Below, piece after piece: positions 2,417 to 22,168 of a stretch of DNA of 22,714 nucleotides. The notes under the pieces are model-generated. The model ran no database searches. It had not been told where the DNA came from and saw only the letters and a list, made by a program, of their open reading frames with translations. The position numbers were made by a program, and so were the translations under genes. Source of the stretch: Azolla caroliniana (Eukaryota; Plantae; Polypodiophyta); NCBI GenBank assembly GCA_043228905.1, contig JBHGNT010000498.1:1-22714 (forward strand), given 5' to 3'. Every line of letters begins with the position of its first letter. Position 1 is the stretch's first letter.

Positions 2417-2724
2417 CCAATATTACCAAGCCTACACTTTTAATCATGTAGTTACATGATGATATAATACTTAAGTGTCGCGCATACACTCGCATAGGGT
2501 TCAATCCTCACCTACACAACTAAGCTGGAGATGCAAACTAGAGTTCCTTCGTGCAAGTGCAAATATCTTCGAGTGGTAACATGCAATTAAAGGGGAGGCC
2601 GATAATTTTTGGAAGAAAATCTTAGGAAGAGTGTTCTCCTATCTTTGATTTGAACCTTAGCATGAATCATTGTCTTAACTAAGATTTCATGAGTCATCTT
2701 TCAATCGTTCTCATAATAGCATGA

Positions 2725-2975
2725 CTGAAGCTTCTTCCATGAATCATTATTCTAACTTAGATTTGAAGCTTCTTCCAACACCAATCTTTTGCACTCAGAT
2801 TTGAAGCTTCTTCCGACACAAATCTTTTGCACTCAGATTTGAAGCTTCTTCTAACACGAACCTTCTACACTTACATTTGAAGCTTCTTCCAACACGAATA
2901 TTCTGCACTCACATTTGAAGCTTTGGCTAACATGAGTCCTCCTATCTCTGATTTGAAGATTCTTTCATGAACCAT
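2725..2975. repeat. 38-bp tandem repeat, about 6 copies
   Basis: Unit gatttgaagcttcttccaacacgaatcttttgcactca starts at about 2760, 2798, 2836, 2874, 2912 and 2950. Confidence 0.85.
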
Positions 2976-2979
2976 GTGT

Positions 2980-3600
2980 GGTTCATTGATTGGGAAACTT
3001 CTTCCTCATGTTCATATTTCTTCTCATATTCTCATGTAGATTTCTTTCATGTTCTTCTTTCTTCTCATATTCTCATGTCCAACATGAGTCTTCCTATCTT
3101 CAATTTGAAGTTTCTTCCATGAATAGTAAGTGAGTGGTTCATAGATAGAGGAGATTTTTCCTTATGTTTATCTTTATTCTAATCATCTCATGTTCATCTT
3201 TTTTTCATGTAGTTTTTTTTATGTTCATCTTTCTTCTCTATTCCTTATGTAAATCTTTTTTATGTTCATCTTTCTTCTCTATTCTCATGTAGATATTTTT
3301 CATGTTCATCTTTCTTTTCTTATTATCACGTTCTTCTTTCTCTTGTAGGTTTTTTTCATGTTCATCTTTCTTCTCTTATTCTCATGTCCAATATAAGTAT
3401 TCCAATCTTCGATTTTAAGGTTCGTCTATGAATCATAAGCGGTTCATACATAGAGGAGCTTCTTTCGCATTTTCCTCTTATTTTTCATATTCTTCTTTTC
3501 ATCTTTCTCTTGTGGATTCTTTTCTTGCTCATCTTTCTTCTCGTATTTTTGTGTTCATCCTTTTTTTTTTTTTCAAAAAAACATATTCTTCATTAGTAGA
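2980..3600. repeat. Degenerate CT-rich ~40-bp tandem repeats
   Basis: Recurrent (tt)catgttcatctttcttctc(t)attctcatgtagatttt. The same family recurs at about 7900-8160. Confidence 0.7.
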
Positions 3601-3759
3601 AATTCTACATCCATGACAAAATGATTAGACTGGCAACCTTATAAAGGCTGTAGCCGTGGTAGACCAATAAAAACTACAGAGACTCAGAGTATAAAACTAC
3701 AAAGACCGGTGAACACCTACAAGAATGTTCTTTCCATCACCTATGATCATTGGCTTAAA

Positions 3760-4473
3760 CACTGAACTGTAATGAGAACGTTTCAAGAGACTTTCTTTCG
3801 AAATGAAAGCATATCCAATAGTTCATGTACTTTCTTTAAGAGTCCACCCTTAGCATATGGCTGAAGCAATGCATTGCCAACAACCTGGTTTCTCTTCAGC
3901 TTGCCCATCTTCTACATATCCTGTAATGAGAACATTGCAGGAGACTAACTTTCGAATTGGACGCATATCAAACATTTCATGTACTTTCTCTAAGACTCCA
4001 CACTTAGCCTATAGATGAAACAATGCATTTCCAACAACCTGGTTTCCCTTCAACCTGCCCATCTCCTCAAACTTTATATGCATTTCTCTACCCTTTTCTA
4101 TACAAATGTGACATAAACTTGAACTTGGATTTGAATTGAAACCATATCCTGTAATGAGAACATTGCAGGAGACTATCTTTCCAACTTTCACTTGATCTAT
4201 CCTACCACCTTTTGAATCCATGTCCATTAAATAAAAACCATTGCTTGTGCATGTATTTGTTGGTCATTTTCCACAACATTCAGTTTAGCACAAGCTTTCG
4301 GAAGAATAGAAATAACATAATCGGTAGGTGTTGCATATGTACAAACCAAACTTTCCCTGCTACCTTACAACGTTTTCCTTCAACATGTGTGTACTTGCAT
4401 TCCATTGAAATTTTGAATCACAGACTTTTGGATATAATAATTTGAAATATACTTCATAGAATACAACAAACAC
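3760..4473 (-). pseudogene. Scrambled/decayed PLS-class pentatricopeptide repeat (PPR) gene fragments
   Basis: Minus-strand translation gives PTDYVISILPKACAKLNVVENDQQIHAQ and GREMH...GNQVVGNALFHL*AKCGVLEKVHEMFDMRPIRKLVSCNVLITGYVEDGQAEE. These match PLS PPR consensus motifs (GNALVDMYAKCG..A..VFD.LP.RDVVSWN.LI.GY). There is a ~154-bp internal duplication (ctgtaatgagaac at 3767, 3921, 4149) and a splice acceptor ttttgcag|gtg at 4474. Confidence 0.8.
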
Positions 4474-4499
4474 CTGCAAAAGAAAATGCTCTCTACTTT

Positions 4500-5570
4500 C
4501 ATCGTCACCTCATAAAAGTCTGCTCTAGCCCCCAACGACGTCATCACTCATCCTTATCAAACAAAGAAAACATGCTTCCTTTTCCCCATCCATCTCGCCA
4601 TAGCATAGCAAATCCTGTATCTACCAAACAAAAGCATAATGACACTACTCTCTTTAATCCCCTCATGAAATTCAACTTCTTCCCCAGACACCATCGTCAC
4701 TCATCCTTGACAATTTTCTTCGTTTTCCACATCAACCATTTGTTCGTTTGTCACTGAGGTCCTGTACAAACAAAAAATTGAATGAATGTGCTATCTTAAT
4801 CCCCTCACAAAAACATTGTTTCATCCCCCAACACCATCATGATTCACTCATCCTAAAAAACAGACAATTTGCTTCAATGACCACATCAACCATCTCGATT
4901 TATACCATTGAGAACCTATACCAAAAAAAGAAATGAGCTTACCGTCCTAATCCCCTCATGAAATTATGCTTCATCCCCACTACACCATCGTCACTCTTCC
5001 TATACCAAAATGTGCTATCCTCATCCCCTACAAGTTTCTTCGTTTTCCACATTAACCGTATGTTCATTTGGCACTACAGTCTTGTACAAACAAAAATAGA
5101 GTGAATGTGCCACGTCATCCCCTCATAAAAACATTGCTCCAAGCCCCAACACCACCATGATTCCCTCATCCTTAGAAAACAGACAATTTGCTTCAATGAC
5201 CCCGTCAACCATTTCGATTTATACCATTGAGAACCCGTACGAAAAACAGAATGAGATTACTCTCCTAATCCCCTCATGAAATTATGATTCATCCCCCTAC
5301 ACCATCGTCCATCATCCTATACAGAAATAGAAGAATGTGCTTCATTTTCCACATCAACCATCTGTTCGTTCACCACCAAAATCTTGTACAAACAAAAATA
5401 GAGTGATTGTGTTGTCCTCATCCCCTCATAAAAATCTGCTTCAACCCTCGACAACACCATCACTCATCCTTACCAAATAGAAATACTTCCATGACCATAT
5501 CACCATCTCATTGTGTACCACTAAAGTCATATATCTACAAAAAAGAAAACTTAATGAAACTACTGTCCTA
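4500..5570. repeat. Tandem repeat with ~320-bp period built from two related ~150-bp subunits
   Basis: cgttttccac at 4721 and 5041 (cattttccac at about 5343); recurrent atcccctca...catcccc...caccatcgtcactcatcct motifs. Confidence 0.8.
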
Positions 5571-5578
5571 ATGACAAA

Positions 5579-6893
5579 TTACTGTGGAGTATTCAGTATA
5601 AATGGTGCCGGTGGCGAAAACAACCAACGAGGTGGAACTCTTCTAATTCCACTTAACATCATCTCGTGTTGCATCCAAGAAAATAGGAATAGATGACCAA
5701 ACTCTTCTAATTCTCCTTATTTTCCAATTAGCTACATCTCCAAAACCCCTATAACTATCATATTCACCTTTAACCATATTTACCAATAATTCCCAGAAAG
5801 ACTTAACTTGATCCACAACATTAGTTTGTTCATCATTATATATTTTAGAACACCTCGCTTTCCAAATAATCCATAAGGCCAAAGAGGAGATAATGTTCCA
5901 AACATAACACCTAGAAAAAAACTTGACTCCCTACAAGGAGCTTGATGTATCGTACACCTGAAAACTTTTCACATGTAAAGTCAATGATGAATTATGATGA
6001 TGATAAAAAACTGTTTGTTGAGCCAACGTACCCCAAAAGATCGCACCCCACGTAAATATAACTGCCCTATACTTATGACCTAAAAGCCTAAGAATACGAG
6101 ACCAAAAACATTTGACCGTAACACATTCCCAAAAATCATGATGCAATGTCTCAGATGCAAAACCACACCTACCACATGATCGATCAAGTATTGTTCCCCT
6201 CAATAAAGCTCCTACTGGCAATGCATAATGAATTATTAACCATCGAAAATGCAATATCTTGTTCATACATTTAAGTGACCAAAACTGTTTCCAGAACTTC
6301 AACATATACGAAGATGACACATTACCTTCCTCCCAATATATTTTCCCCTTGGGTATCGACTCTATCTCATTTAACAAAAAATTTCTACCCAATGCCACAG
6401 AATATGTGAAAAATGGAAGAACTTTCGTTTGCGGAGTGTCAGACCTAGGCAACATCCAACCATAATCCGATGGATCCCACTACAGATTAGCAATTGGCCT
6501 AGAGTGTAAAACCCACATATGAGATGAGTACTTAACAATTAATGGATTAGGATCTATAAATATCTTTTTATCTAATCTAGCAATTACTCTCACTGACAAC
6601 TGCTTGGCAGAAGACATAATTGAAGACTCCTCCTCCACTAAAAACAACCTACCGTTATCTAGAACTGCACAAAAGTAGAGGCTACTATTTTGATGATATA
6701 AACGAGCTCCTATAAGTATATTCAATGTCGAAAACATACCATACCAATTCTGAAAATGACCAAATTGCAAAGTTGGCAGTGTTACCTGATACATCGTTTA
6801 CACTTGAGAGAGCATAGTGTTTGCCCCTCTAAAATTAGATACCCTAGTCTTTTGGTCTTGCAATGAAGTCTGCAGAAAATTTACCCAATCCGT
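5579..6893 (-). mobile_element. L1-clade LINE ORF2 C-terminal fragment (zf-RVT region), decayed, truncated by the LTR at 6894
   Basis: ORFs 5931..6455 (FWKQFWSLKCMNKILHFRWLIIHYALPVG...CGRCGFASETLHHDFWEC..VKCFW) and 5643..5882 (ALWIIWKARCSKIYND) match the plant L1 zinc-knuckle/C-terminal motifs. A frameshifted tail RVPPRWLFSPP...* ends at about 5579. Confidence 0.85.
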
Positions 6894-6955
6894 TGTCGTG
6901 AAGAATGTGCTTCACGATATAAAAATGAGCTTAAATATTGTATTTAATAATATTT

Positions 6956-7012
6956 GAGAGACTTGAACCCACATCCTTATATACGAAGTACAATGTACAT
7001 ACCACTAGGCTA
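6956..7012 (-). other. tRNA-like Pol III cassette (A-box/B-box) inside LTR, copy 1
   Basis: Minus strand TAGCCTAGTGG (A-box) ... GGTTCAAGTCT (B-box), 43 nt apart, with a partial anticodon arm ttgta-cttcgta-tataa. Confidence 0.7.
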
Positions 7013-7092
7013 GGCTATTTATTTGTAAAAGTTTGTAAAAAAATGTGCTTCATTATATAAGAATGAAGCTATATATTGTATTGAGTAAAATA

Positions 7093-7149
7093 GAGAGACT
7101 TGAACTCTCAACCTTGTATACCAAACACAAAGCATACACCACTAAGCTA
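7093..7149 (-). other. tRNA-like Pol III cassette inside LTR, copy 2 (137-bp tandem duplicate of copy 1)
   Basis: Minus strand TAGCTTAGTGG ... AGTTCAAGTCT. Anticodon arm ttgtg-tttggta-tacaa (TGG, Pro-like) and perfect T-arm gagag-ttcaagt-ctctc. No acceptor stem. Confidence 0.75.
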
Positions 7150-7400
7150 GGTTAGTTATTTTAGAATGCATTTTCATCATTATACTTATCACATATCTAT
7201 TTTCATACATAGCCATCATGCATCACATGCAATGCATGTGCGCCAAATGGCGATCATGCATTACGTGTAACTCATGCATTACATGCATGCCATGCTCCCA
7301 TACATTACCATATGCATGGCAACACTTATATAAAGAGGGGCAAGGAAACAAGAGGGGATCAAGAGAGAGGGAGAAAATAATACAATCAAGTAGAGAAGAC

Positions 7401-7456
7401 CAGCTCATTAGGTGAAGAACCTTGCGTTTCAAAGTTGAGGTCGTGGGTTCAAATCA
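7401..7456 (+). other. Additional degenerate tRNA-like A/B-box cassette downstream of the LTR TATA
   Basis: CAGCTCATTAGG ... gaggtcgtgGGTTCAAATC, offset 45 nt. Confidence 0.5.
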
Positions 7457-7899
7457 AGGGTCGGTAGAGAATGTGTTCAGTTTGCGATCAAGGATTGTAA
7501 AGTTGGTAAAATATTGTCTTTTTAATATACATCATGTTTATATCATATACTCTTGCTTCTTGAATCATGCTTTGTCTTAATCTTCCTTCTTAAATCATTC
7601 TTTGTCTCTATCTTCTATCTATTCTCATCTCTGTCTCTCTCTCTCACACATTACTTGTAACTCTTCTTCTTGCCATTCTTAACCTTTCTAACATCACAAT
7701 ACAAGCCTTATTAAAATTTAAGTTCCTTCAACTCCCCTTAACCTTAGTCCTTGCGACTTCGCCGCACGAACCACAACTACCCCGACACCGCAACCGTACG
7801 AGTTGGTCTATTATCCATTGCAACCCATAATAACCTAGTTCGTAAACCGAAAACACATGTCGCTTCATCACTAAATAAAGGATTCCATAACAACGGTTG

Positions 7900-8160
7900 A
7901 CGCTTTTTTTTTTGTGTGTTCATCTTTCTCATGTATATTATTTTCATGCTCATCATTTTTCTCTTATTCTCATGTTCATCTTTGTCATGTAGATTTTTTG
8001 CATGTTCACCATTCTTCATATATTTCATCATTTTAATATATAAAACCATGGTTTTCTTGTATATGAGTTTTTTATGTGATTCCTTGTCATATTCAAATTT
8101 TTTATGTTGCATGTTTATCTTTCTTCCTCCATTTCTTGTTTTTTTCATATTTGAAATCAT
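7900..8160. repeat. CT-rich degenerate repeat, same family as 2980-3600; probable intron upstream of the transposase exon
   Basis: Shared ttattctcatgttcatcttt / catgtagatttt motifs, followed by branch-like tactaat and acceptor ttgcag|g at 8217. Confidence 0.55.
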
Positions 8161-8217
8161 GTTATCATTGGTTATGAAATTACTAATACAACTCTTGTTG
8201 ATTTATTATGCTTGCAG

Positions 8218-8748
8218 GTCCCATTTGGTAATATTAGTATACAACTAATTGTAACCTTGATTGCTTTAATTACTTTCCTTGGTATTCTTTTTAAGTAATA
8301 CGTATAATTGAAAATGGTAATCGTCAATTGGATTGACATGTCTTGTTTACCAATAGACAATATATAGTATGTGATATGGTATCTATCATAATGTGAAATG
8401 GAAACAAATTTAGGGTATTAAGTAGAAAATATAGGGAATAGACAAGTTAGGAAAAATATTAATATGTTATTATGCTTGTCACAGAGTTTCAAAAGTAATT
8501 CTAGTAGTTCATTCCACGTAAATTTACGGGTTATGGGCAAAATTCACAGTTCAAGGAATGTTACATAACAAATTAATAATCTACATTTCAAATGACAAAA
8601 AGCATTATCCGATTTTTGTTTAACATTGGTTTGAGCTTGACCATGCGGATTTACTATTTCTTGGTCTTAATTTTAATCAACATTAAGTATGGTTCGATGG
8701 TGTAGCCTCACAATTTAAGGTGGCATGATACTTCTGTTTTATTTCAAG
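8218..8748 (+). pseudogene. DDD/E DNA transposase (Sola-like) exon, decayed
   Basis: Reads ...GQNSQFKEC... then ISNDKKHYPIFV*HWFELDHADLL..LNFNQH*VWFDGVASQFKVA*YFCFISR, matching the SDD..HD..FVQHCF and WSDG.ASQFK catalytic motifs. Ends at donor AG|GTAAAT (8748/8749). Confidence 0.7.
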
Positions 8749-10867
8749 GTAAATTGATTATTGTACGTTAAGTACATGATAGTTCTAAGTCTATTCAACT
8801 AATTCTTCATAAGCCTTCAACTATTACTTTAGTTTCCTATGCTTTCTAATCTTTAATGAAAACTTAGAACTAATTGTATTCAAACTTGTCTACATTACTA
8901 ATATTTGTTTAGTCTCCTACATTTAATGTTGTTCAATAAAAACTTTTTACTTTTCTTCCAATGTGCATTAGTACTAATAATGTTTTTACCCATGTTTAGT
9001 ATTTTTAAATAATAACTTAGTATTGTCCTCCACTGTGCATCAATGCTAATTATGTATTTACTGATATTTAGTACTTTTAAATAACAATGTAGTATTGTCC
9101 TCCCATGTGCATCAATACTAATTGTATATTTACCTATATTTAATATTTTTATATAACAACTTAGTATTGTTGTTCTATATGCACCATCACTAATTGTCTA
9201 TTCACCTATACTTAGTATTTTGAATAATAACTTAGTATTGCTATCAAATGTGCATCAGTACTAATTATGTGTTTACCCATGTTTAGTATTTTTAAATGAC
9301 AACTTAGTATTGTCCTCCCATATACATGTCAGTACTAATTTTCTACTCACTTATGTTTAGTATCTATAAATAATAACTTAGTACTGTCCTCCCACGTGCA
9401 TCGGTACTAATTGTGTATCTACCTAAGTTTAATATTTTTAAATAAAAACTTAATATTGTCCTCCCATGTGTGTCAGTACTAATTTTTTACTCACGTATGT
9501 TTAGTATCTAAAAATAATAACTTAGTACTATCCTCCCATGCACATCAGTACTAATTGTGTATTTACCTAAGTTTAATATTTTTAAAAACTTAGTACTATC
9601 CTCCCATGTGCATCAGTACTAATTTCATATTTATGCAAATGTAGTATTTTTAAATAAAAACTTAGTACTATCCTCCCATGTGTGTCAGTACTAATTTTTT
9701 CTACTCACTTATGTTTAGTATTTTTAAATAACAACTTAGTACTATCCTCCCATGTGAATCAGTATTAATTGTCTATTCACGTGTTTAGTATAGATATAAA
9801 TAAAAACTTACTAGTGTCCTCCCATGTGAATCACTACTAATTGTCTATTCACATATGTTTAGTATCTACAGGTAATGACTTAGTATTGTCCTCCCATGTG
9901 CATCAATACTAATTTACAACATAGTACTATCCTTAATTTACAACTTAGTATTGTCCTCCCACGTGCACAAGTACTGATTATGTTTTAAGTCATGTAAAAT
10001 ATTCTTAATTTACAACATAGTACTATCCTCCAATGTCTATCAGTACTAATTCTATTTTAAGCCATGTAAAGTATTCATAATTTACAACCTAGTACTGTCC
10101 TCTCACATGAATCAATACTAATTATGTTTTAAGCCATATAAAGTATTCTTAATTTACAACTTAGTATTGTCCTCCCACATGCATAAGTGTTGATTATGTC
10201 TTAAGCCATATAAAATATTCTTAATTTACAACATAGTACTGTCCTCCCACATCTATCAGTACTAATTCTATTTTAAGCCATGTTAAGTATTCTTAATTTA
10301 CAACTTAGTACTTTCTTCTCACATGAATCAATACTAATTATGTTTTAAGCCATGTAAAGTATTCTTAATTTACAACTTCATATTGTCCTCCCACGTGCAC
10401 AAGTACTAATTATGTTTTAAGCCATGTAAAATATTCTTAATTTAGAACATAATACTATCCTCCCACGTTTATCAGTACTAATTCTATTTGAAGCCATGTT
10501 AAGTATTCTTAATTTACAACTTAGTACTTTCCTCTCACATGAATCAATACTAATTATGTTTTAAGCCATGTACAATATTCTTAATTTACAACTTACTAAT
10601 GTCCTCCCACATGCACTAGTACTGATTATGGTTTAAGCCATGTAAAGTATTCTTAATTTACAACTTAGTACTATCCTCCCACAATCAACACTAATTCTAT
10701 TTTAAGACATGTTAAGTATTCTTAATTTACAACTTAGTAATGTCCTCCCACGTGAATAAATATTAATTAAGTTTTAACCCATGTTAAGTATTGTTTGGCT
10801 ACCTATGATGTACTAACTTAGTATTGTTACTAATGTTTGTTGGCTATCTGTGATGCAAAACGCCCAG
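8749..10867 (+). other. 2119-bp phase-2 GT-AG intron of the transposase
   Basis: Splicing tcaag|gtaaat...cccag|gtac joins FIS-R-YFSLTN in frame between two catalytic motifs. Confidence 0.75.
8960..10790. repeat. ~72-bp intronic minisatellite (~25 units, two subfamilies, 216-bp trimeric higher-order repeat in the distal part)
   Basis: Core aacttagta(c/t)tgtcctccca(c/t)(a/g)tgcatcagtactaatt. aatttacaac recurs at 10151, 10223, 10295, 10367, 10439, 10511, 10583 and 10655. Confidence 0.95.
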
Positions 10868-11520
10868 GTACTTCTCATTGACCAACATTAGGATGCAATG
10901 GAACTACTTCAGGTCTGGACATGGAAAGGGAGAGCATGATGGGGTGGAGGTTGTGATCAAGCATGCTCTTATAAGCAAGAAGGTGGATAATAAAGGTGTT
11001 AAGTTACAAAATGCACATGATGTTGTGGAGTGGCTGACATGGAAGATGTGAAATGATGGTAAGAATAGATTGTTTATTGAGATTCGTGCTAATGAGTTGG
11101 ATAGAAGTAAATCATATGGTTGTAAAACCATGAAAAGGACATGTAAGATCCATTGTTCTTTAGGGTTTTGTCGCAAGGACACAACACAATTGCTATTTCA
11201 TAGTTTATCATGCTTTTGTTCCATGTGTATTATAGGTGAATCTTGGGATGAATGCATCAATCTATTAGTCATGGAGCCATGGAAGTTGCAGAAGCTTGAG
11301 ATTCAACGACAAGATGATATTCAAAAAAACAAACACTCATACAATATTATATACTACAACCAATCTACACGTTTATTGGAGATCATTTTGCAGTGCTGAA
11401 ATCTCCTCAAAGTGAAGATTTTGAATGAAGACTATGACATTGTGGTGTGCAAGCAAGGGAGCACAATATTGAAAGAAATGACGAGGGATGGTTGGGGCAA
11501 CATGTCCAACGTTGGCACGT
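10868..11520 (+). pseudogene. Sola-like transposase exon, part 1 (interrupted by LTR element)
   Basis: YFSLTNIRMQWNYFRSGHGKGEHDGVEVVIKHAL...LQNAHDVVEWL (HGKG..DG catalytic Asp motif), then KTMKRTCKIH...LSCFCSMC (ORF 11070..11399) and DYDIVVCKQ...DGWGNMSNVGT. Stops and frameshifts present. Confidence 0.8.
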
Positions 11521-12390
11521 TGTCGTGCCTTTCGGCTCCGGATCGTTTGCGTGAGTCGGGTGGGAACCACCGAGGTTTTGGACTAGGAGGAGGAAGAATT
11601 TGAGGCTAATCTAGTTATGAATATGAATAGATTATAAGAAAGAGATATAGAAACTTGTGAATCCCACAAGTATAATTGTTTTAGTTTATCTAAATCGTAG
11701 TAATAAATTGAAATAATTTAGAATAGATTAGAGTAGATTGAGAAAAGAGATCAAACCTTGTGAATCCCACAAGTATTACATTAATCAATATTTATGTAAG
11801 AATATGAATTTAGATTGAAAGAGATAGATTATCTTAAACTTCGTGAATCCCACGAGTATATTTTATTGATTGTTGGTGTTTTAGGAAATATATCCAATTT
11901 CCCAAATATTTTTCACACACCTATTACATTGTGCTCCCCATCCTTATGTAGTGATGGGAGAGACTAAGCATAGCTACATGCTTTTTTTTCTAATATGTTC
12001 ATGCACACTAAATGTGCATGTGATGCTTTTCTAATCCTTGCTTTTATTTGCTAAATATAGTGCTCATGCACGCTAGATGTGCATGAGTCACTTTTTAGTC
12101 GCTTGCGTTTTTCTATAAAATATTCACGCACTCTAAAAATACATGATTTACCTTTTAATAAAGGTAGGCGCAAATAAAGCACTTATAGTTATTAAATCTA
12201 TTTATAGAACACTAAAGATAAGGTAGCATAATGGTAAAGTTGAGGTTTGGCTACGTGGAGGTATAGGGTTCAAATCCTGCCCTATGCACGTGATAAATAT
12301 CTTGATATATTATTTTATTTATTTATATGTAATTAAATCGGTTATATTATTTTTTACTTTTTCACGTAGTGTACGAAATACACTACGACA
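11521..12390 (-). repeat. 3' LTR (870 bp)
   Basis: TGTCGTGCC...CACTACGACA. Identical by eye to 13985-14854 except C11550 versus T14014. Confidence 0.95.
12224..12277 (+). other. tRNA-like A-box/B-box cassette in LTR U3, antisense to the element (second copy 14688-14741)
   Basis: TAGCATAATGG (fits TRGCNNARYGG) and GGTTCAAATCC (consensus B-box), 43 nt apart, with tttggct at the anticodon-loop position. Confidence 0.75.
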
Positions 12391-13110
12391 CTCGCCCCCT
12401 CCGAACCCGCACATCCTCCGGTATGTGCCGAAGTTGCCGATGCTCGTTGTCTCCCCTTCATCCTCCGTTTGTCCCGCTATGTCAACTTTGTCTCTCCATT
12501 TTGAGTAGACCCATTCTTTCCACCCGAACCATTGTCGCCATCCGATCCACCATATTCTTTGTTCATTCTTTGCATTGCCATGAGTGGTTGTCATGGTCCC
12601 TTGTGGTACTCTTGAGCATCTCGGTGTGTTGTCTCTCTCCACTCCGCGCTTGTCTTCCGTAGGTTCTACCCACGCGTCGATGTCGACCTCCGAATACGTG
12701 CTCGCTGTTAGGTCCTTGTGCGGCTTTAATGCATGCTTTATTTCTCGATGTTGCGCATGCGTCGTATTAGGCCGTAGCGCATGCTTCGTATTCCATCGTA
12801 GTGCATGCGCCGTATTACCCCGTAGTGCATACTTATTTTTGCACCGTAGCGCGTGCTTCTTTTTGCGCCGTAGCATGTGCTTCTCTTTACGCCGTAGCAC
12901 GTGCTTCTTTTTGTGTCGTAGTGCGTGCTCCATATTACATGCTTCTCCCATCGTAGACCCGACCTTCGCGTTGTCATGCTTTTGTTTACATCGGAATTTC
13001 AGACAGATCATCTTCCATCCGAACCGGCTTCCGACTTTACCTTCCTTCTTGCCACCTCCCGTCTCTCCGGTCTCACGTTGGTTCTCGGACACAACCGCCG
13101 AAGTACGGTA
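12319..13110 (-). CDS. Frameshifted continuation of the gag ORF: basic 8-aa repeat region and Trp-rich segment, function unknown
   Basis: ORF 12319..13092 overlaps the gag ORF end and repeats its TSAVV...QRETGET motif in a different frame. Contains the HALRxxxx repeats and WWIGWRQWFGWKEW, and runs into the 3' LTR. Confidence 0.5.
   Translation of the reverse strand, partial: YRTSAVVSENQRETGETGGGKKEGKVGSRFGWKMICLKFRCKQKHDNAKVGSTMGEACNMEHALRHKKKHVLRRKEKHMLRRKKKHALRCKNKYALRGNTAHALRWNTKHALRPNTTHAQHREIKHALKPHKDLTASTYSEVDIDAWVEPTEDKRGVERDNTPRCSRVPQGTMTTTHGNAKNEQRIWWIGWRQWFGWKEWVYSKWRDKVDIAGQTEDEGETTSIGNFGTYRRMCGFGGGECRSVFRTLREKVKNNITDLITYK
12391..12402 (-). promoter_or_regulatory. Polypurine tract
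   Basis: Minus strand GGAGGGGGCGAG immediately before the 3' LTR. Confidence 0.85.
12723..12938. repeat. 24-bp coding tandem repeat, ~9 units
   Basis: gccgtagcgcatgcttc-type units at 12771, 12795, 12819, 12843, 12867, 12891, 12915, plus two degenerate units at 12723 and 12747. Confidence 0.85.
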
Positions 13111-13946
13111 TTATCATCTTCCGTTGTTTCACCCATAGCCATGTTCTCCTTGGCTATCTCTCCTTCGTATGCATCGGCTTCGACCTTCGTTTCGTTGCCG
13201 CCACTTTCCTTATCTTCGGTGTTATGTCGACACCCGGGCTCTAGTACCGAAGTCTCCGAAACAATGGTGAAGGAATCCCTTCGTTCGTGCTCATTTACTT
13301 TGTCTTCCTCGTTGCCCTTCCGGTCCTCCACTTTTCCACCGACACATTCCGTCTCTCCGGTCTCACGTTGGTGCACGGGCACAACCGCCGAAGTCTCTGG
13401 AACCGGTGTGGGGATACCCTTTCGTCCTCGATCTTCCTCCTCCTCGTCCTTTGTTGGCCTCGACTTTGGTTCGGTTTTAAGCTCCCCTTCAATGTCGACT
13501 TGCGACTTTTCATGCATCTCCGAACCCTTCCGCATCAAGCTCTCCTTCGGTGGTAGTCGGTGGCCGCTTTTCACCCACTGTTGACCGCCGTTCGTGGACC
13601 ATGTCCTCGTCCGCTTCGGTCTTAGATAGTCATATGTGTCTCGTATAGCTTCTTCAAAGGACTCCCACATCGGGCTTTGTTGTCGTATCTCGTGGATTCT
13701 CTCTTGAAGCTCATCCGTAGCCACCCGGTTGAAAGATAACACTTGCAATCTTTCTGAGATACCATATCGCAACATCTCCATTTTGTAGTCACGTAGATAG
13801 CGTGACACGTCCTTTCCATCGAATTGCCCGTTCTGTTGCACGAGCCGTTGTACTACTGTCGTGATCTCCGACATCTCGCGTTGTTCTTGTAGCATTCTCT
13901 CGAACATCATCATCATCATGTTCATCGCCTCTTGTTGATTCTCCAT
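13008..13946 (-). CDS. gag: Gag-like protein (capsid-like N-terminus plus charged low-complexity tail)
   Basis: First ATG lies just downstream of the PBS. Sequence NGQFDGKDVSRYLRDYKMEM...WESFEEAIRDTY resembles the retrotransposon gag F.G.....FL..(Y/F) ... W..F...L motif pattern. Confidence 0.75.
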   Translation of the reverse strand: MENQQEAMNMMMMMFERMLQEQREMSEITTVVQRLVQQNGQFDGKDVSRYLRDYKMEMLRYGISERLQVLSFNRVATDELQERIHEIRQQSPMWESFEEAIRDTYDYLRPKRTRTWSTNGGQQWVKSGHRLPPKESLMRKGSEMHEKSQVDIEGELKTEPKSRPTKDEEEEDRGRKGIPTPVPETSAVVPVHQRETGETECVGGKVEDRKGNEEDKVNEHERRDSFTIVSETSVLEPGCRHNTEDKESGGNETKVEADAYEGEIAKENMAMGETTEDDNTVLRRLCPRTNVRPERREVARRKVKSEAGSDGR

Positions 13947-13962
13947 CTCCTTGCCACCCGCC

Positions 13963-13980
13963 TTCACGTCGGGTTCACCA
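13963..13980 (-). promoter_or_regulatory. Primer binding site complementary to tRNA-Trp 3' end
   Basis: Minus strand TGGTGAACCCGACGTGAA, 4 nt from the 5' LTR. The + strand TTCACGTCGGGTTCACCA equals the 3' 18 nt of plant cytosolic tRNA-Trp(CCA) as I recall it. Confidence 0.9.
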
Positions 13981-13984
13981 ACTG

Positions 13985-14854
13985 TGTCGTGCCTTTCGGC
14001 TCCGGATCGTTTGTGTGAGTCGGGTGGGAACCACCGAGGTTTTGGACTAGGAGGAGGAAGAATTTGAGGCTAATCTAGTTATGAATATGAATAGATTATA
14101 AGAAAGAGATATAGAAACTTGTGAATCCCACAAGTATAATTGTTTTAGTTTATCTAAATCGTAGTAATAAATTGAAATAATTTAGAATAGATTAGAGTAG
14201 ATTGAGAAAAGAGATCAAACCTTGTGAATCCCACAAGTATTACATTAATCAATATTTATGTAAGAATATGAATTTAGATTGAAAGAGATAGATTATCTTA
14301 AACTTCGTGAATCCCACGAGTATATTTTATTGATTGTTGGTGTTTTAGGAAATATATCCAATTTCCCAAATATTTTTCACACACCTATTACATTGTGCTC
14401 CCCATCCTTATGTAGTGATGGGAGAGACTAAGCATAGCTACATGCTTTTTTTTCTAATATGTTCATGCACACTAAATGTGCATGTGATGCTTTTCTAATC
14501 CTTGCTTTTATTTGCTAAATATAGTGCTCATGCACGCTAGATGTGCATGAGTCACTTTTTAGTCGCTTGCGTTTTTCTATAAAATATTCACGCACTCTAA
14601 AAATACATGATTTACCTTTTAATAAAGGTAGGCGCAAATAAAGCACTTATAGTTATTAAATCTATTTATAGAACACTAAAGATAAGGTAGCATAATGGTA
14701 AAGTTGAGGTTTGGCTACGTGGAGGTATAGGGTTCAAATCCTGCCCTATGCACGTGATAAATATCTTGATATATTATTTTATTTATTTATATGTAATTAA
14801 ATCGGTTATATTATTTTTTACTTTTTCACGTAGTGTACGAAATACACTACGACA
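13985..14854 (-). repeat. 5' LTR (870 bp)
   Basis: Direct repeat of 11521-12390, adjacent to the PBS. Confidence 0.95.
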
Positions 14855-14858
14855 ACGT

Positions 14859-15082
14859 CTATCATTTGTGGCAACTATTATGCAAAGTTGTCACAATGCA
14901 AGAACTCGTATGCATTATTGTAAGATGCACCCACTACCATAACCTATGATGATGCCGTTATCGCAATCAAGTTCACTATGACTCAGGCAAAGCACAAAAT
15001 TAAGGGATACAAAACTATCTACAAGGTCCCTCAAGATGTACATGAACACATATTGGGGGAGGTCTCCCTCTTTAATGCTTAG
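14859..15082 (+). pseudogene. Sola-like transposase C-terminus (continuation after LTR insertion)
   Basis: Removing the LTR element and one ACGT restores the frame ...NVGT-SIICGNYYAKL...L*DAPT...AIKFTMTQAKHKIKGYKTIYKVPQDVHEHILGEVSLFNA* (TAG 15080-15082). Confidence 0.75.
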
Positions 15083-15194
15083 AATTTTAACTGTTAGTAC
15101 ATTGTAGAAACCTTGTAGAATGGCAATTGATCTTCAATGTCAGATCTTCATATGTAACTTCACAAGTTATCCTAATTAGGGATGACAAATTCAT

Positions 15195-15735
15195 CAATAT
15201 ATATCCTCTTTGGTTTTCCTAAAGTTTTTGGCGCTCTTATAGTGTTAATTGTTTCTAGTAATGTATATATCCTCTTTGGTTTGCTTAAAGTGATTGGTGC
15301 TTATATAACATTAAATTTTTTTAGTAATATATTATCCTCTTTGGTTTGCATAAAGTGTTTGGTGCTCTTATAGTGTTAACTATTTCTAGTAATGTATTAT
15401 CCTCTTTGGTTTTCATAAAGTATTTGGTGCTCTTGTAGTGTTAATTGTTTCTAGTAATGTATATATCCTCTTTGGTGTTCGTTAACTGTTTGATGCTCTT
15501 ATAGTGGTAAATGTTTCTAGTAATGTAATATCCTCTTTGGTTTTCATAAAGTGCTCTTATAATGTTAACTGTTTCTAGTACAATATATATCCTCTTTGAT
15601 TTTCATAAATTATTTGGTGCTCTTATAGTGTTAGCTGTTTCTACTAATGTTGATATCCTCTTTGGTTTTTATAAAGTGTTTGGTGTTCTTATAGTGTTAA
15701 CTATTTCTACTCATGTATATATCCTCTTTTGTTCA
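15195..15735. repeat. ~66-bp tandem repeat, ~9 copies, downstream of the transposase stop
   Basis: tcctctttgg-type motif at 15204, 15270, 15335, 15400, 15466, 15531, 15590, 15656 and 15722. Confidence 0.9.
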
Positions 15736-15741
15736 CTATAA

Positions 15742-15914
15742 CAATTATTATGCAAAGTTGCAATGGTCCTCCCACATGTATGCTTTAGTAAAAGATGCAC
15801 CCACTGCCATAATCTATGTTGAGGCCATTATCGCAATAAAGTTCACTATGACTCAAAAAAAGCACAAGGGTAAGGGAAGTAAACTGTCTACAAGGTCCCT
15901 CAAGAGGTACATGA
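15742..15914 (+). pseudogene. Diverged duplicate of the transposase 3' end (14872-15045)
   Basis: NYYAKLQWSSHMYALVKDAPTAIIYVEAIIAIKFTMTQKKHKGKG versus NYYAKLSQCKNSYALL*DAPTTITYDDAVIAIKFTMTQAKHKIKG. Confidence 0.85.
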
Positions 15915-16150
15915 TGTCATAAACATCTTTGGAGTGTAATGGACTCAACATTCATCTTCTCATAAGATATCATATTCATACTTAGAGAGTGAACAAAAGC
16001 AATGTCAATCATATCAATTCGGCACACAATAAGTATAAAAAAGATATATCATTTCGATATGACAATAACAAGTACAGACCATGACCCATAAAATCTTTGG
16101 CACTAGTATTTTTTGGTACTTATAATGCATCGAGAACTGATAATCTCCTT

Positions 16151-18317
16151 CTACATACTATTGAGTGACACTTCATCATCGGAGGCCAATAGGACAACAT
16201 CAAATGGTTCCCCTCCTTGGACCGGTGGCACCCCCCTTGAGTTTCCTACTTCGTGGCTGGTAGTTGTGTTTTAATCTGACTCATCATCGATGGTGTTTTC
16301 CACATCTTTCTTAGTACCCATGTGCTCCTCCTCGTGGACAATGCTAGAAACCTCATTCTTTTTATAGTCGTTCTCCTCTTCTAAATTGAATGTGGCGTTT
16401 TCTTCACAATCCTCATGTCTGGTTATGGTGTTGTCAGAGTCATCTTTTGTTCAAGGCATAGTCACGATCATAGAGTCTTCATCTCTTCACCATATGGTGT
16501 CCGAATCATCTTCTTGTATTTGTTCATCTCTTAGTTCTTGTCCAACTAAATTTGAATGCACCCAACAATACCAATGTCAATACCAATCTCAATAAACATA
16601 CAAGGTAAAGGTTCACACTCCTGCCCACCTATGTATATAATAGATCCTCTAGTTCTGTAGACTATGCTAGTACTAGCCAACCTAAGTATATAATAGATTC
16701 TAGTACTAAACCTACAATACAACTAATTGTAGAATGAAGTGTGTACTATGTTAGTACTAGCTCACCGAAATATAGGATGAATTCTAGTACTACACCAACT
16801 ATACACCTAAAGGTCTCCTGAAGTGTGTACTATGCTAGTACTAGCCCACCTAAATATAGAATGGATACTAGTACTAAACAAACTGTACAACTAATTGCAG
16901 AATGAAGTGTGTACTATGTTAGTACTAGCTCACCTAAATATAGGATGGATTCTAGTACTACACCAACTGTATACCTAAAGGTCTCCTAAATTTGTACTAT
17001 GCTTGTCCTTGCCCACGTAAATATAGAATGGATTCTAGTACTAAACCAATTGTACAACTAATTGTAGAATGAAGTGTGTACTATGTTAGTACTAGCTCAC
17101 TTATATATAGGATGGATTCTAGTACTACACCAACTCTACACGTAGAGGTCTCATGAAGTGTATACTATGCAAGTACTAGCCCACCTAAACATAGAATGGA
17201 TTCTAGTACTAAATCAATTGTACAACTAATTCTAGAATGAAGTGTGTACTATGTTAGTACTAGGTCACTTAAATATAGGATGGATTCTAGTACTACACCA
17301 ACTGTACACCTAAAGGTCTTTTGCAGTATGTGATATGCTAGTACTAGCCCATCTAAATATAGACTAGATTCTAGTAATAAACTAACTGTACAACTAATTA
17401 TTGAATGAAGTGCATACTATGTTAGTACTAGCCCACCTAAATATAAGATGGATTTTAGTACTCCAATTGTACGCCTAAAGGTGTCCTGAAGTGTGTACTA
17501 TGCTAGTACTAGCCCACCAAAATATAGAATGGGATTTAGTTAGAGAAGCATGTTTAGTACTACAACAACTATACACCAACATGTAAAATTAGTTACGATG
17601 AATGCACAAGAACTAAAGGACATAAATATCGATGCAACATATAGTATATGGAGCGAAACCAGTACTAAACCATGAATTTTCTATTTTCTGGTATGAATTG
17701 TGACCTAAACCAATACTTAAGCAACTATAAAATGGAGTCAGAAAGTTCAGAAAAACATAATAGCAGTATCACATACCAGAGGAGTGAAATTTGAAACCCA
17801 TAGCTAAGTACTATTCAGCTCCAATAGTAATTTTACAGTCCATACATGTAATTACTTTCTCAAAGTGGTACTTAGCACATAGCGTATGATATGTGTGCAA
17901 ACACAGTGTAATCACAACATCCATAGCCTCGAGCTTGAATCCAAGGCCACAGATACAAACATGCACTTGGAGACACAAACTACAACATAATAGCTAAAGG
18001 AGAAAAATATAAACTGTAGAAGGTAAAAGCAGAGATATCCTCACATGCATCCTAAGACTTCAAGACAATGTTTGTACTGGAGGATTCTCTATAATGTGAT
18101 GACTGGAGACGAGTAAAGACTTCATAGTCAACTTGAATGTCACTTGAACGTCATATGCAAAAACACATGCGCTTCACCCTTTCTTTGGTGTGTGTCTATT
18201 TACTTTGTTTGATGGGGGGTCCACGTTCTTTCCTTTGTGGGTGTCATCACTTCATCTTTGACTAGTGCTTTCTTTGTGGGTGTCTTCTTTTTCAATTTTC
18301 TTGTTATCACTTTTCTT
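16151..18317 (-). pseudogene. Decayed multi-exon gene: Lys-rich segment + RING-H2 finger + acidic tail, convergent with the transposase
   Basis: Exon ~18317-17777 encodes AC(+1 nt)CICGLGFKLEAMDVVITLCLHTYHTLCAKYHFEKVITCMDC (C-x2-C...C-x-H-x2-H-x2-C...C-x2-C; 17961-17835). Donor g|gtatgt at 17776, acceptor near 16629, and an acidic last exon (EEENDYKKNEVSSIVHEEEH...SDDEVSLNSM*) ending at 16151. Not in the ORF track because of stops. Confidence 0.65.
16650..17580. repeat. 84-bp intronic minisatellite with alternating A/B monomers (168-bp higher-order unit), ~11 monomers
   Basis: gaagtgtgtactatg(t/c)tagtactag-type monomer starts at 16736, 16820, 16904, ~16988, 17071, 17155, 17239, 17323, 17407 and 17488. 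Monomer ends alternate aaggtctcct / aattgtagaat. Confidence 0.95.
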
Positions 18318-18419
18318 CTAAAAAAGCTTCCACAACATAGTATTAACTCCCTTACATAGCTATAAACTAGTACTTCACACATCAATATACATAGCAGAAT
18401 ACCATTCCTAGATCACGCA

Positions 18420-19470
18420 ACAGATTACCACACTATAAATATGTCTGGACAATAATACTAAATCAACAAGAACAAGAAGAATAACAACAAGAAAACAACT
18501 TTTCAACATAGCAGTACTAAGTCAAGCATCCCCCTTTCCAAGAAGAAGAAGAAGAAGCAAAGCAGATTCTAACATATACATGTACAAAATTCAAGCATAT
18601 CTCGACCCTCAAATGAACACTACACAAAAACAATAACATCACCACCAACAACAAGAACATGACATAATAGTCTGGTCCAAAAATAACAAAATCATATTCT
18701 TGTCATCACATAATTACTAAAACTCTACTCACAAATGAACACTGAGAAAAAAAAGAACAACAATTGCATCAACATCAACAAAAACAACAAGAACATGCCA
18801 TAGTAGTCAGATCAAGAACAACACACTTCTTGGACATGCCATCACAATAGTACTAAATGAGGCACCCTTTTCCAAGCCTCAACAAGTGCAAGATTCATAT
18901 CTCAGCTCTTGGATGAACACTGGAGAAAACAAGAAGAACAACAAGAAGAACAAGAGCAAGAAAATCACCAAACATACTCAACAAGAACATGTTGAGGAAC
19001 ATAACATATACATAGGACCATATCATCATAGCAGCCCTTTCCATATGTGAACATGTATAAGACTCAACCATATACATGTTACAAGACTCTCAAATGAACA
19101 CATTTCAAAAACAAGATGAAAAACATACTCAACAAGAACATGTTGAGGAAGATAACAAATAAATAACATCATATCATCATAACGCCCCCTTACCATATAT
19201 GAACATGTACAAGACTCAAGCATATTTTTGGACAAGGCTCTTAAATGAACACATTTGAAAAACAAGACAAATGAAGAGCAGGAACAACAACAAACATGCT
19301 CAACAAGAACATGTTGAGGAAGATAATATACAAATAACATCACATAATCATAACACCCTTACCATAATGAACATGTACAAGACTCAAGCATATTTCTATA
19401 CAAGACTCTCAAATGAGCACATTTTAAAAACCAGACATAAAAAGAACATTTACAAACAAAATCAACAAGA
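18420..19470. repeat. CAA-rich ~150-175-bp tandem repeats; probable intron (about 18318-19476) of the minus-strand gene
   Basis: caagaacatgttgagga at 18982, 19133 and 19304; atgaacac/atgagcac recurs six times. Minus-strand donor ag|gtatat at 19476 and acceptor ttttag|a at 18318. Confidence 0.8.
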
Positions 19471-20039
19471 ATATACCTCTTCTCGAATAGTTGAAGAGAC
19501 TTCTCAATGAATATGTGGTAGAGTCACAAGTTATTTGCCGACAAATTGTTGTAGATCATGCAACAAAACCTACAATAGGAGGAGACCTAGATGTTGTGTC
19601 GTTTGAAGAGGTCGTTGCATGTTTGTTGTAGAGGGGTCACCGCAAGGACATTGAGAAGAGATGGTATGAACACAACGAGCAAAGGGGAAAGAGTGACCAA
19701 AGAATGTCTGATACACCATAGAGCGGTCACAATAATAACAAAGAGCACAGAATGCATGCTCATTGCAGATAGGTCACAACAACAACAAAGCAAAGAATTC
19801 TTGTTCGCTCTGGATGATGTGACACAACAAGCACCAATGAGCAGACATGGTGGGGACATAGCGAGCAAAGGAGACAGAGTGAGAATAGAGCGCCTTGAGG
19901 TTGCAAGAGGGTCAAAGCAAACACAGAACGTGGTTGCCTCGAGGTGGAGACGGTCTGAAGCGTCGCCACAACTTGAACACCTATGAATGCAGGAGAAGCA
20001 AAGAGAGATCTGAGAGAGAGGGAGATCTGAGAAAGAGAG

Positions 20040-22168
20040 ATAAATAGATAGATAGATTGTATTATCGTCTTCACGTGAGACCAAAAATATTACATTTCAC
20101 GTGATACATGTGAAAGTGAGTAGTGACTCTCGATGTTCAAGAACTTTACCAATGAATGTTGCAATCGAGAGTGCACATTGTGGTTTTGAGAGGAATTCAT
20201 GCAAGGATTGGGCTCGGTCGAAGAGATGTGGAAAGCATGGTCGAATATGATCCAAGTCAGAGCATTGTATCAAAGTGTGATACTCAGACTCGCGAACTTG
20301 TTTAAGGCAAAGTGTGCATAGTCGACCACTCTCATCACTTGTGCCCCAACGCCCTATCTCACATCGCAATGCATGTGAGCTAAGTCGCATGGAAGCAATG
20401 GTTCGAATGGCAGATAAGGTAATGGGCTCTAACATTTATCGATGTGTACGATTTCCCCGTTCCGCAAGAAAATGGTTTTTTAGTTAGGTGCAACATGTGT
20501 AGTATAATGTGTGAAGTGTGAGTCTCCACATTTGTCCCATCTCATGATACATTGGCGTTGCAAAAAGGCCTTATTTACAGAGGAATCTAATGATGCATCA
20601 TGAAGCAAGTGTCTCGCATCCCATCTACCAAACCATTTTTCTATATCTTGCATCCAACCAGAACACAAAATTTTGCTTTTATGCATCTTTTGGATCTTTC
20701 TGCTTGCTTCCCATGCAATTCTAGGAAGTTGATGTGAGGGACATTTTTTAACCTTAGGCATGTATTGAACAACCCTTTCCATGGCCATGATCTCAATGGG
20801 AAGCGATCCCGTCTCAAGGAGGAGGAGGCTGTAGGGTGTTTGTTACTTAACTTCGAGAAACTTTGTAAGAAAATGTTTTTGGACATTTTCAAACTCTTTC
20901 CACATAGATTTAGGGATGTTACCACCCCATACTTCCAACCCATAGAGAAGAACAGGTGTCACCAAAGTGTCGGAAAGATATTTCTTGAGGACCCAACACT
21001 TAATATCTCCAAGATTGCATGTGTTCTCAAATGCATTGTATGCTCGCTTACCCGCCTCTAAGCGGTGTGTAGCACATTCATTCCATCTATGATTTGAAGG
21101 AACTTCAAGGCCAACATATTTGAAGCTTTCCACACATTCAAGTGGCTCATTGTTGTACATAATGCATGGTTTATCTCGTTTTTGGCTCTTCACAAGCATA
21201 ATCTTTGTTTTAGAGCTATTGACACTTAATTTAGTATGCATGCAATTTTTTTCCAATGCCTTCATAAGCTTTCCAAAAAGCACTACATCATCTGCATATA
21301 GCAAAAGCATAATCACAACATTCCCAATGGCAACTTCTTCAACACATTCTTCCTTTGCAAACTTGGTAACCATTTTTTCCAGTTCATCAATGCATAGACC
21401 AAATAGTGTTGGTGAGAGTGGGCATCCTTGCTTAACACCAATAGTGCTTTTGAAAAAATCGAAAAGTTTATCTGTTATGCGCACACAACATATAACCGTC
21501 TCATAAATTCGGGAAATTGCAAGCATATATTCACTTGGCACCTCAAGTTCTTCCATTCGCCTCCAAAGATGCTCACGAGGTACCATATCAAAAGCGTTAT
21601 TGAAGTCTAGAAAGCAACAATATAAACCTTTACCTCTAAGATGAATTTCCTCTATTAATACTCGAAGGGTGACAAGGTGATCAATGATGCTATGGTGTTT
21701 TCGAAAGCCAGCTTGTCCAAAAGCTCTCTTACCATATTTTTTGCCTATATACTTATCTTTGATTCCATTATACATCCAAACAGTTTTGCCATTAATGAGC
21801 CAACCATGATAGTTCGATAATTGTTTACATTATTTAAATCTCCACCTTTATGTAAAGGTTTGATCCAATTTGTAGTCCAATCGTACGACATACCATGTTG
21901 CAATGCATCATTAAACATATCATTTATCCATACATGTGCGTCCTTTTCTGTCCATTTGAGCATTTTAGCCTTTATACATTGAAGATCGCTTACTTTTCGA
22001 GAGGCCAATTTCTTAAGTCCTATGCATATATCTTCAATTGTAAAGAAGGGTGACATATGTGAAAGAGAACCATAACACATCATCTTTCCGGCAAGAGATA
22101 ACTCATATAAATTCTTACAATGCATAAACAAGTCATGAAGAGTTAAGTCAACATAACTCTCAACACGT
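20040..22168 (-). mobile_element. RTE/RTEX-type LINE (RT + C-terminal CCHC), frameshifted, 3' end intact with (ATCT)n tail, 5' part interrupted by an LTR
   Basis: RT motifs NNYRTI, QAGFR, FLDFNNAFD.V, GVKQGCPLSPTLF, LLYADD and FKYVG across ORFs 21745.., 20843..21775 and 20480..20788. C-terminus RLSSHALRCEIGRW...CTLC...ESEYHTLIQC (20097..20435). Short 3' UTR, then atctatctatct at about 20046-20057. Confidence 0.9.

Follow-up and report, generated by a model that had tools for sequence, protein, structure and literature searches.

The 22,714-nucleotide stretch of Azolla caroliniana DNA analysed here (GenBank assembly GCA_043228905.1, contig JBHGNT010000498.1; the window) is best explained as holding a dead copy of a multi-copy, Sola2-type cut-and-paste transposon, whose tail-to-tail genes are likely two: one for a transposase with a catalytic triad of aspartates (DDD), the other an accessory gene with a RING-H2 finger. 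Taken as a whole, including the mechanism predicted below, this explanation falls just short of an even chance. The sequence is an interspersed repeat, present in three public sequencing runs as many variant contigs and at a depth far above that of the unique flank (read and contig depth, here from public runs including X1, X3 and X8, is not a copy number). The order of features is given in Table 1.

Table 1. Features of the window, in order of position (LINE, long interspersed nuclear element; LTR, long terminal repeat; TSD, target-site duplication; iE, independent E-value)
Feature	Position	Strand	Basis
Approximate left boundary of the repeated element	2556..2650	.	Depth step in public-run contigs
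5′ non-coding part of the element, 38/76-bp and CATGTT-rich repeats	2650..3549, resumes 7915-8217	+	Repeats; empty-site joint
L1-type LINE remnant (zf-RVT), poly(A) end, containing a solo LTR	3550..7914	-	Pfam zf-RVT E 5e-8; joints in other copies
Solo LTR inside the LINE	6894-7787		Flanks CCGT/CCGC
Transposase exon, decayed	8218..8748	+	Splice acceptor 8217/8218 read from sequence; second Asp in WFDG at 8696-8698
Transposase intron with 72-bp minisatellite (8935-10792), AGTACT-rich	8749..10867	+	GT-AG, in-frame join
Transposase exon with third Asp (HGKGEHD), CxCxxC and 2 stops	10868..11520	+	Motifs, profile
Young LTR retrotransposon	11521..14854	-	870-bp LTRs with 1 mismatch; TSD ACGT; 353-codon internal frame
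Transposase C-terminal coding part and stop	14859..15082	+	Profile match iE 4e-6; in frame over empty site
66-bp minisatellite between the genes, without AGTACT	15198..15733	.
Second copy of transposase 3′ coding end (14872-15045), 81% identical	15742..15914	+	Self-comparison, profile
Last recognisable RING-gene exon, acidic, with stops	16151..16545	-	In-frame junction; 63% match to start of L004 last exon, E 7e-4
RING-gene intron, 84/168-bp minisatellite, AGTACT-rich	16546..17776	-	GT-AG; relatives share intron position and motif
RING-H2 exon, first CxxC out of frame, one stop	17777..17979	-	Ligand pattern, relatives
First coding exon of RING gene	18045..18317	-	blastn and tblastn against L003/L004/L005, P0158
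RING-gene 5′ intron, 151/168-bp repeats, CATGTT-rich	18318..19476	-	GT-AG
Likely RING-gene 5′ exon or leader, still multi-copy	19477..20050	-	Splice donor; variant rows 19689-19907, depth 100-400
RTE-like LINE	20050..22167	-	Pfam RVT_1 E 2e-24; depth 1e4-1e5
Further LTR	from about 22168		Runs off window

The plus-strand gene had been read in the initial annotation as a spliced transposase that ends at 15082 and carries the motifs W.DG.ASQFK, HGKGEHDG and LSCFC..C. Our analysis confirms this reading, with WFDGVASQFK at 8690-8719, HGKGEHDG at 10920-10943, LSCFCSMC at 11205-11228 and an intron that joins in frame. Across the empty site of the nested LTR retrotransposon the frame reads on to its stop, and the read-through exon matches the homologue P0004 (567 aa) with an E-value of 1.2e-24 at 31% identity. 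P0004 itself has 5,824 relatives at E ≤0.001, 150 of them listed; one close relative comes from a Klebsormidium transcriptome. The window copy is decayed. Its core has 5 stops in 292 codons, and about 58 profile positions, the first catalytic Asp (DFAENY) among them, are missing: the stretch 8472-8564 corresponds weakly to profile positions 127-157, the match resumes with position 216 at 8558, and DFxEN is position 170. Because this Asp is lost, the copy is unable to move by itself. A transposase N-terminus was not found in the 5′ region, where matches are of low complexity and on the wrong strand.

Assignment of the transposase to Sola2 is supported by its motifs, which narrows the Sola-like label originally given. 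In P0004 the catalytic residues D172, D256 and D297 lie in DFAENY, WSDGAASQFK and HGKGEHDG, the contexts seen in Sola2, and the window copy retains the second and third of them. Among 151 homologues, many of them partial, DF(A/S)EN(Y/F) is found in 87 and HGK..D in 94. Placement is a comparison of motifs, made by eye against the published alignment (PMC3627910 Additional file 10); P0004-type homologues share with it the DDD core with DF(A/S)ENY, QxEIQSxHW, SDD..HD, SDG..(S/G)Q(Y/F)K and HGK..DG, as well as a Cys-rich region upstream. What differs from the published elements is the spliced gene with its minisatellite intron, a plant-type C-terminal extension and the likely second gene. For moss, the reviews consulted name Sola1 and not Sola2. 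The RING-H2 pattern is present in none of the 151 transposase homologues, and therefore no fusion of transposase and RING was seen. Separately, an OTU-like domain occurs in 3 of 26 Sola2-like transposases scanned (P0088, P0122 and P0050, with E-values of 1.5e-6, 4e-5 and 0.007), which would be a second tie of Sola2 elements to ubiquitin chemistry.

The facing minus-strand gene was likewise correctly placed as a RING-H2 gene ending at about 16151. Its exon 17979-17777 splices in frame to the acidic exon, and the finger keeps C-x-H-x2-H-x2-C...CxxC with the first CxxC frameshifted; Pfam zf-RING_2 matches the window copy at E 0.051, below the curated cut-off. Compared with the intact exon, the first coding exon lacks about residues 42-131 and 175-340, two internal deletions that took most of a compact domain and of a coiled coil, and this copy cannot make the full accessory protein. 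Both genes are thus decayed, as had been noted, with stops and internal deletions in each. The 61-base ‘intron’ upstream of the RING exon corresponds to an intron of roughly 90 bases in the related locus L004, of which a deletion has left this remnant. A phosphatase-like domain after 16151, suggested by a faint resemblance, has no Pfam match. One run, presumably of RNA, gave no cover over the transposase or RING exons, which has no bearing on expression.

Relatives of the RING gene are numerous, and some are intact. Depth over 15296-19543 is 176-554 in X1, 348-1770 in X3 and 223-1519 in X8, some ten to ninety times the depth of the flank. Of 266 pattern matches in a metagenome scan, 8 were related RING loci, with the best segment 71-87% identical; three loci of one assembly have coverages of 1.7, 13.9 and 52.6. 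All eight C3H2C3 ligands are present in L001, L002, L004 and L005. In L004 and L005 an open exon of about 340 codons precedes the RING exon, and open exons of 340-350 codons occur in clusters of 12, 37 and 31 members. The long exon has 10 homologues, with identity down to 34%, none of which carries an informative name. Intact relatives are laid out as a basic tail, a domain of ~105 aa, a coiled coil, the RING-H2 finger and an acidic tail; in the predicted model the basic tail is disordered, residues about 52-157 fold into a compact helical domain, and the coiled coil is long. Modelled alone from an 8-sequence alignment, the N-terminal domain reaches a pLDDT (predicted local distance difference test) of 85.8. 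A fold search with the whole exon returned generic coiled coils only, and the RING gave weak sequence matches (E 0.017-0.07) to the BRE1, PCGF5/6 and synoviolin RINGs in PDB. Viral and prokaryotic collections yielded no real relative; five short matches (L009-L013), with 64-72% GC and unmatched by any profile, were discarded.

The RING gene is under purifying selection in several subfamilies. The ratio of nonsynonymous to synonymous substitution (dN/dS; Nei-Gojobori, 56 codons) is 0.21-0.32 for the RING in all six pairs among the window copy, L001, L002 and L004. Excluded from this comparison were L003 and L005 (near duplicates), L006 (frameshifted), L007 (not anchored) and L008 (truncated). 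Subfamilies compared over the long exon give 0.28-0.54, and the near-identical L004 and L005 give 0.65. The multi-copy state, the several subfamilies and the selection contradict the case that the RING homologues are single-copy host genes.

Each gene has one minisatellite intron in which the palindrome AGTACT is abundant. The two introns contain 26 and 21 occurrences, where 1.8 and 2.4 are expected and 100 shuffles gave at most 6 in either; the palindrome occurs 0-1 times in the flank and in the three nested elements, and the 5′ region of the element has none. In an unbiased k-mer ranking, TAGTACT/AGTACTA is the top common 7-mer in all seven intron arrays, two of the window and five of related loci (33, 39, 28, 18, 8, 13 and 17 occurrences). 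The same 7-mer is found 4 times in the RING-gene 5′ intron and not at all in the flank, the 66-bp array or the three nested elements. The earlier statement that the minisatellites of both introns have motifs in common holds for the motif only: the 72-bp and 84-bp arrays are unalignable (22.9 bits, where the highest control scored 25.6), and therefore the same palindrome was apparently amplified separately. A second motif, CATGTT, occurs 11 and 13 times in the window's two 5′ regions (1.4 and 1.3 expected) and is not enriched in any of the four relatives tested; we give it little weight. The VANC-type motif YAGTATTAY is itself not enriched here.

We consider it quite probable that the transposase and RING genes form one element. 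Depth over the transposase intron (8924-10516) is 119-235 in X1, 474-677 in X3 and 237-542 in X8, of the same order as on the RING side, and at 531-base resolution every bin between the genes stays above the level of the flank. An X1 contig of other copies spans 15844-16121 (depth 56.7, 17 differences in 278); it starts within the duplicated transposase tail and breaks off 30 bases before the RING stop. We infer linkage because the depth matches, a unique spacer is missing, this contig spans most of the gap and the motif is common to both genes.

Our best guess for the accessory gene, drawn by analogy, is a VANC-like, self-targeted anti-silencing role. The protein would dimerise by its coiled coil and, with its basic tail and N-terminal domain, would recognise the AGTACT palindromes within introns of its own element, to which we give slightly less belief than disbelief; DNA binding rests on analogy because the N-terminal domain matches no known DNA-binding fold. 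The RING would then modify chromatin or silencing proteins on the very element that encodes it, and the element would thereby be helped to evade host silencing; that the RING acts as the predicted E3 ligase against silencing is rather doubtful. The fullest form of the proposal, in which Sola2 elements of seed-free plants encode a self-addressed ubiquitin ligase whose DNA-binding domain of undescribed fold would read AGTACT arrays and whose RING would ubiquitinate histones or silencing proteins, independently of VANC and via ubiquitin, is unlikely. Several observations weigh against such a role. A fold search with the N-terminal domain gave no match (best Z 3.0), which does not by itself prove a new fold. 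Pfam RING matches on the intact relatives have E-values of 3e-4 to 4e-4 (one zf-RING_2 at 4.4e-4), under the cut-off. The RING has His at the usual position of the E2-binding Trp, a residue that RING-H2 ligases typically have. Finally, subfamilies with 75-80% identity all keep AGTACT, whereas VANC motifs differ between families (PMC5735166).

A transposition-helper role accounts for the data nearly as well as anti-silencing. Here the same two-gene element would encode a RING protein that helps transposition or brakes its own transposase, for example through ubiquitin-driven turnover, with the AGTACT arrays binding the transposition complex. All evidence of linkage and selection fits this equally, the constant motif suits a conserved partner, and second genes required for integration are known in MuDR (PMC6446971) and EN/SPM (PMC13547354). 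The arrays, however, lie in internal introns and not at the mapped left end. Many Sola2 elements have also been described with a transposase alone, and we regard the helper role as fairly unlikely.

A different explanation denies the single element and takes the locus as two adjoining repeats, a Sola2 copy and the RING gene of a different transposon family, with a common motif that intron minisatellites would tend to have throughout the genome. Insertions are nested across the window, and the transposase tail is duplicated where the two genes meet, so that 15742-15914 could be a junction of two elements; the non-homologous arrays fit as well. No second locus with both genes was seen, and a transposase match is present at none of the 8 RING loci, which are 1.2-4.4 kb long and end inside or before the last exons. 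A search of the window for terminal inverted repeats returned chance matches and one match of LTR to LTR only: the left end has no inverted partner, and the right end, beyond the window, is hidden because the RTE-like LINE and a further LTR start at ~20050 and leave the window. A TSD of the element, 4 bp and AT-rich in Sola2, was likewise not found. Against two adjoining repeats stand the similar depth on both sides with no unique spacer, the contig covering most of the gap from tail duplicate to RING stop, and the lack of the motif in the three nested elements, the flank and the 66-bp array. We find this explanation distinctly unlikely, and the original view of the RING gene as cargo of the element keeps its support from depth and motif, while its joint occurrence elsewhere has not been seen. 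That the gene is a captured host fragment, a functionless passenger as in Pack-MULEs (Pack-Mutator-like elements), is highly improbable: the window copy is a pseudogene with deletions and RING fingers are common in host proteins, but the dN/dS values, the clusters of open long exons and the lack of a named host gene in 10 matches already disfavor it.

Two-gene Sola elements have precedents. Sola2-Fanzor1 of Dictyostelium and Polysphondylium also pairs Sola2 with a second protein gene and has transposase-deleted copies; its cargo is a TnpB-like nuclease, whereas the protein here combines an unclassified domain, a coiled coil and RING-H2 (PMC3627910). Sola1-1_Ec32 of Ectocarpus is likewise a large Sola with an opposite-strand accessory gene proposed to bind and modify its own DNA, and differs in being Sola1, 21.5 kb long and carrying a ParB-methyltransferase rather than a RING (PMC12477816). 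Second genes in Sola elements are therefore already known. Analogous to the present case, VANDAL elements of Arabidopsis are DNA transposons with an accessory gene, and the short motifs to which VANC binds are multiplied in tandem within VANDAL introns; those elements belong to the Mutator superfamily, and binding and demethylation have been demonstrated for VANC where they are predicted here (PMC5735166). In Pfam and fold searches, which are not a direct comparison, the RING-gene protein has no family above cut-off and no fold match, and none that links it to VANC. One oomycete MULE is listed with a RING finger (PMC6446971). The literature searched, which lies outside Repbase and the founding Sola papers, contains no Sola element with a RING gene, and a Repbase entry may exist. 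Known counter-defences of plant transposons are few and context-specific (PMC12973397). If the anti-silencing reading is true, an E3 carried by a transposon and directed by sequence would be a new biochemical route of counter-defence, offer a testable pair of protein and motif beyond the flowering plants and establish a domain of ~105 residues as new. Should the mechanism fail, what is documented here is still a likely two-gene Sola2 design, with intact, selected relatives of a dead window copy.

The element extends past both sides of the 8218-18317 limits first set for it. On the left, depth rises from ~20 or less at 601-2400 (at most 27 in one run) to 150-440 at 2701-3300 in three runs, and the unique contig ends at 2555. 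With the nested insertions subtracted, the element, which starts at about 2600 and continues past 20050, is at least 9.7 kb long. This is close to the published Sola lengths of 2-9 kb, sometimes more than 15 kb (PMC10741241), and the description of the element as giant is unsupported. In all four runs, other copies connect 3549/3551 straight to 7915/7917, and therefore 3550-7914 is a nested insertion; joints of other copies skip 4365 and 908 bases. The retrotransposon within the transposase gene is high-copy, has an internal part of only 1.6 kb and a 353-codon frame without Pfam match, and is likely non-autonomous. We take the LINE on the right to be RTE-like from its microsatellite tail.

Further observations concern the surrounding repeats. 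The old duplication of the transposase 3′ end flanks the 66-bp minisatellite. In the 3′ region of the nested LINE, PPR-like fragments (Pfam E 0.002-0.004, below cut-off) lie at 3767-4110 in a 154-bp tandem repeat. The single-copy region 601-2400 has two exon-like stretches (about 1137-1258 and from 1388) without Pfam match, and to its left, at 1-600, lies a further multi-copy repeat with a 21-bp tandem repeat at 227-281. The three LTRs at 6894-7787, 11521 and 22168 start with TGTCGTG after a site ending in CGT, two of them end with CGACA, and they probably represent related families.

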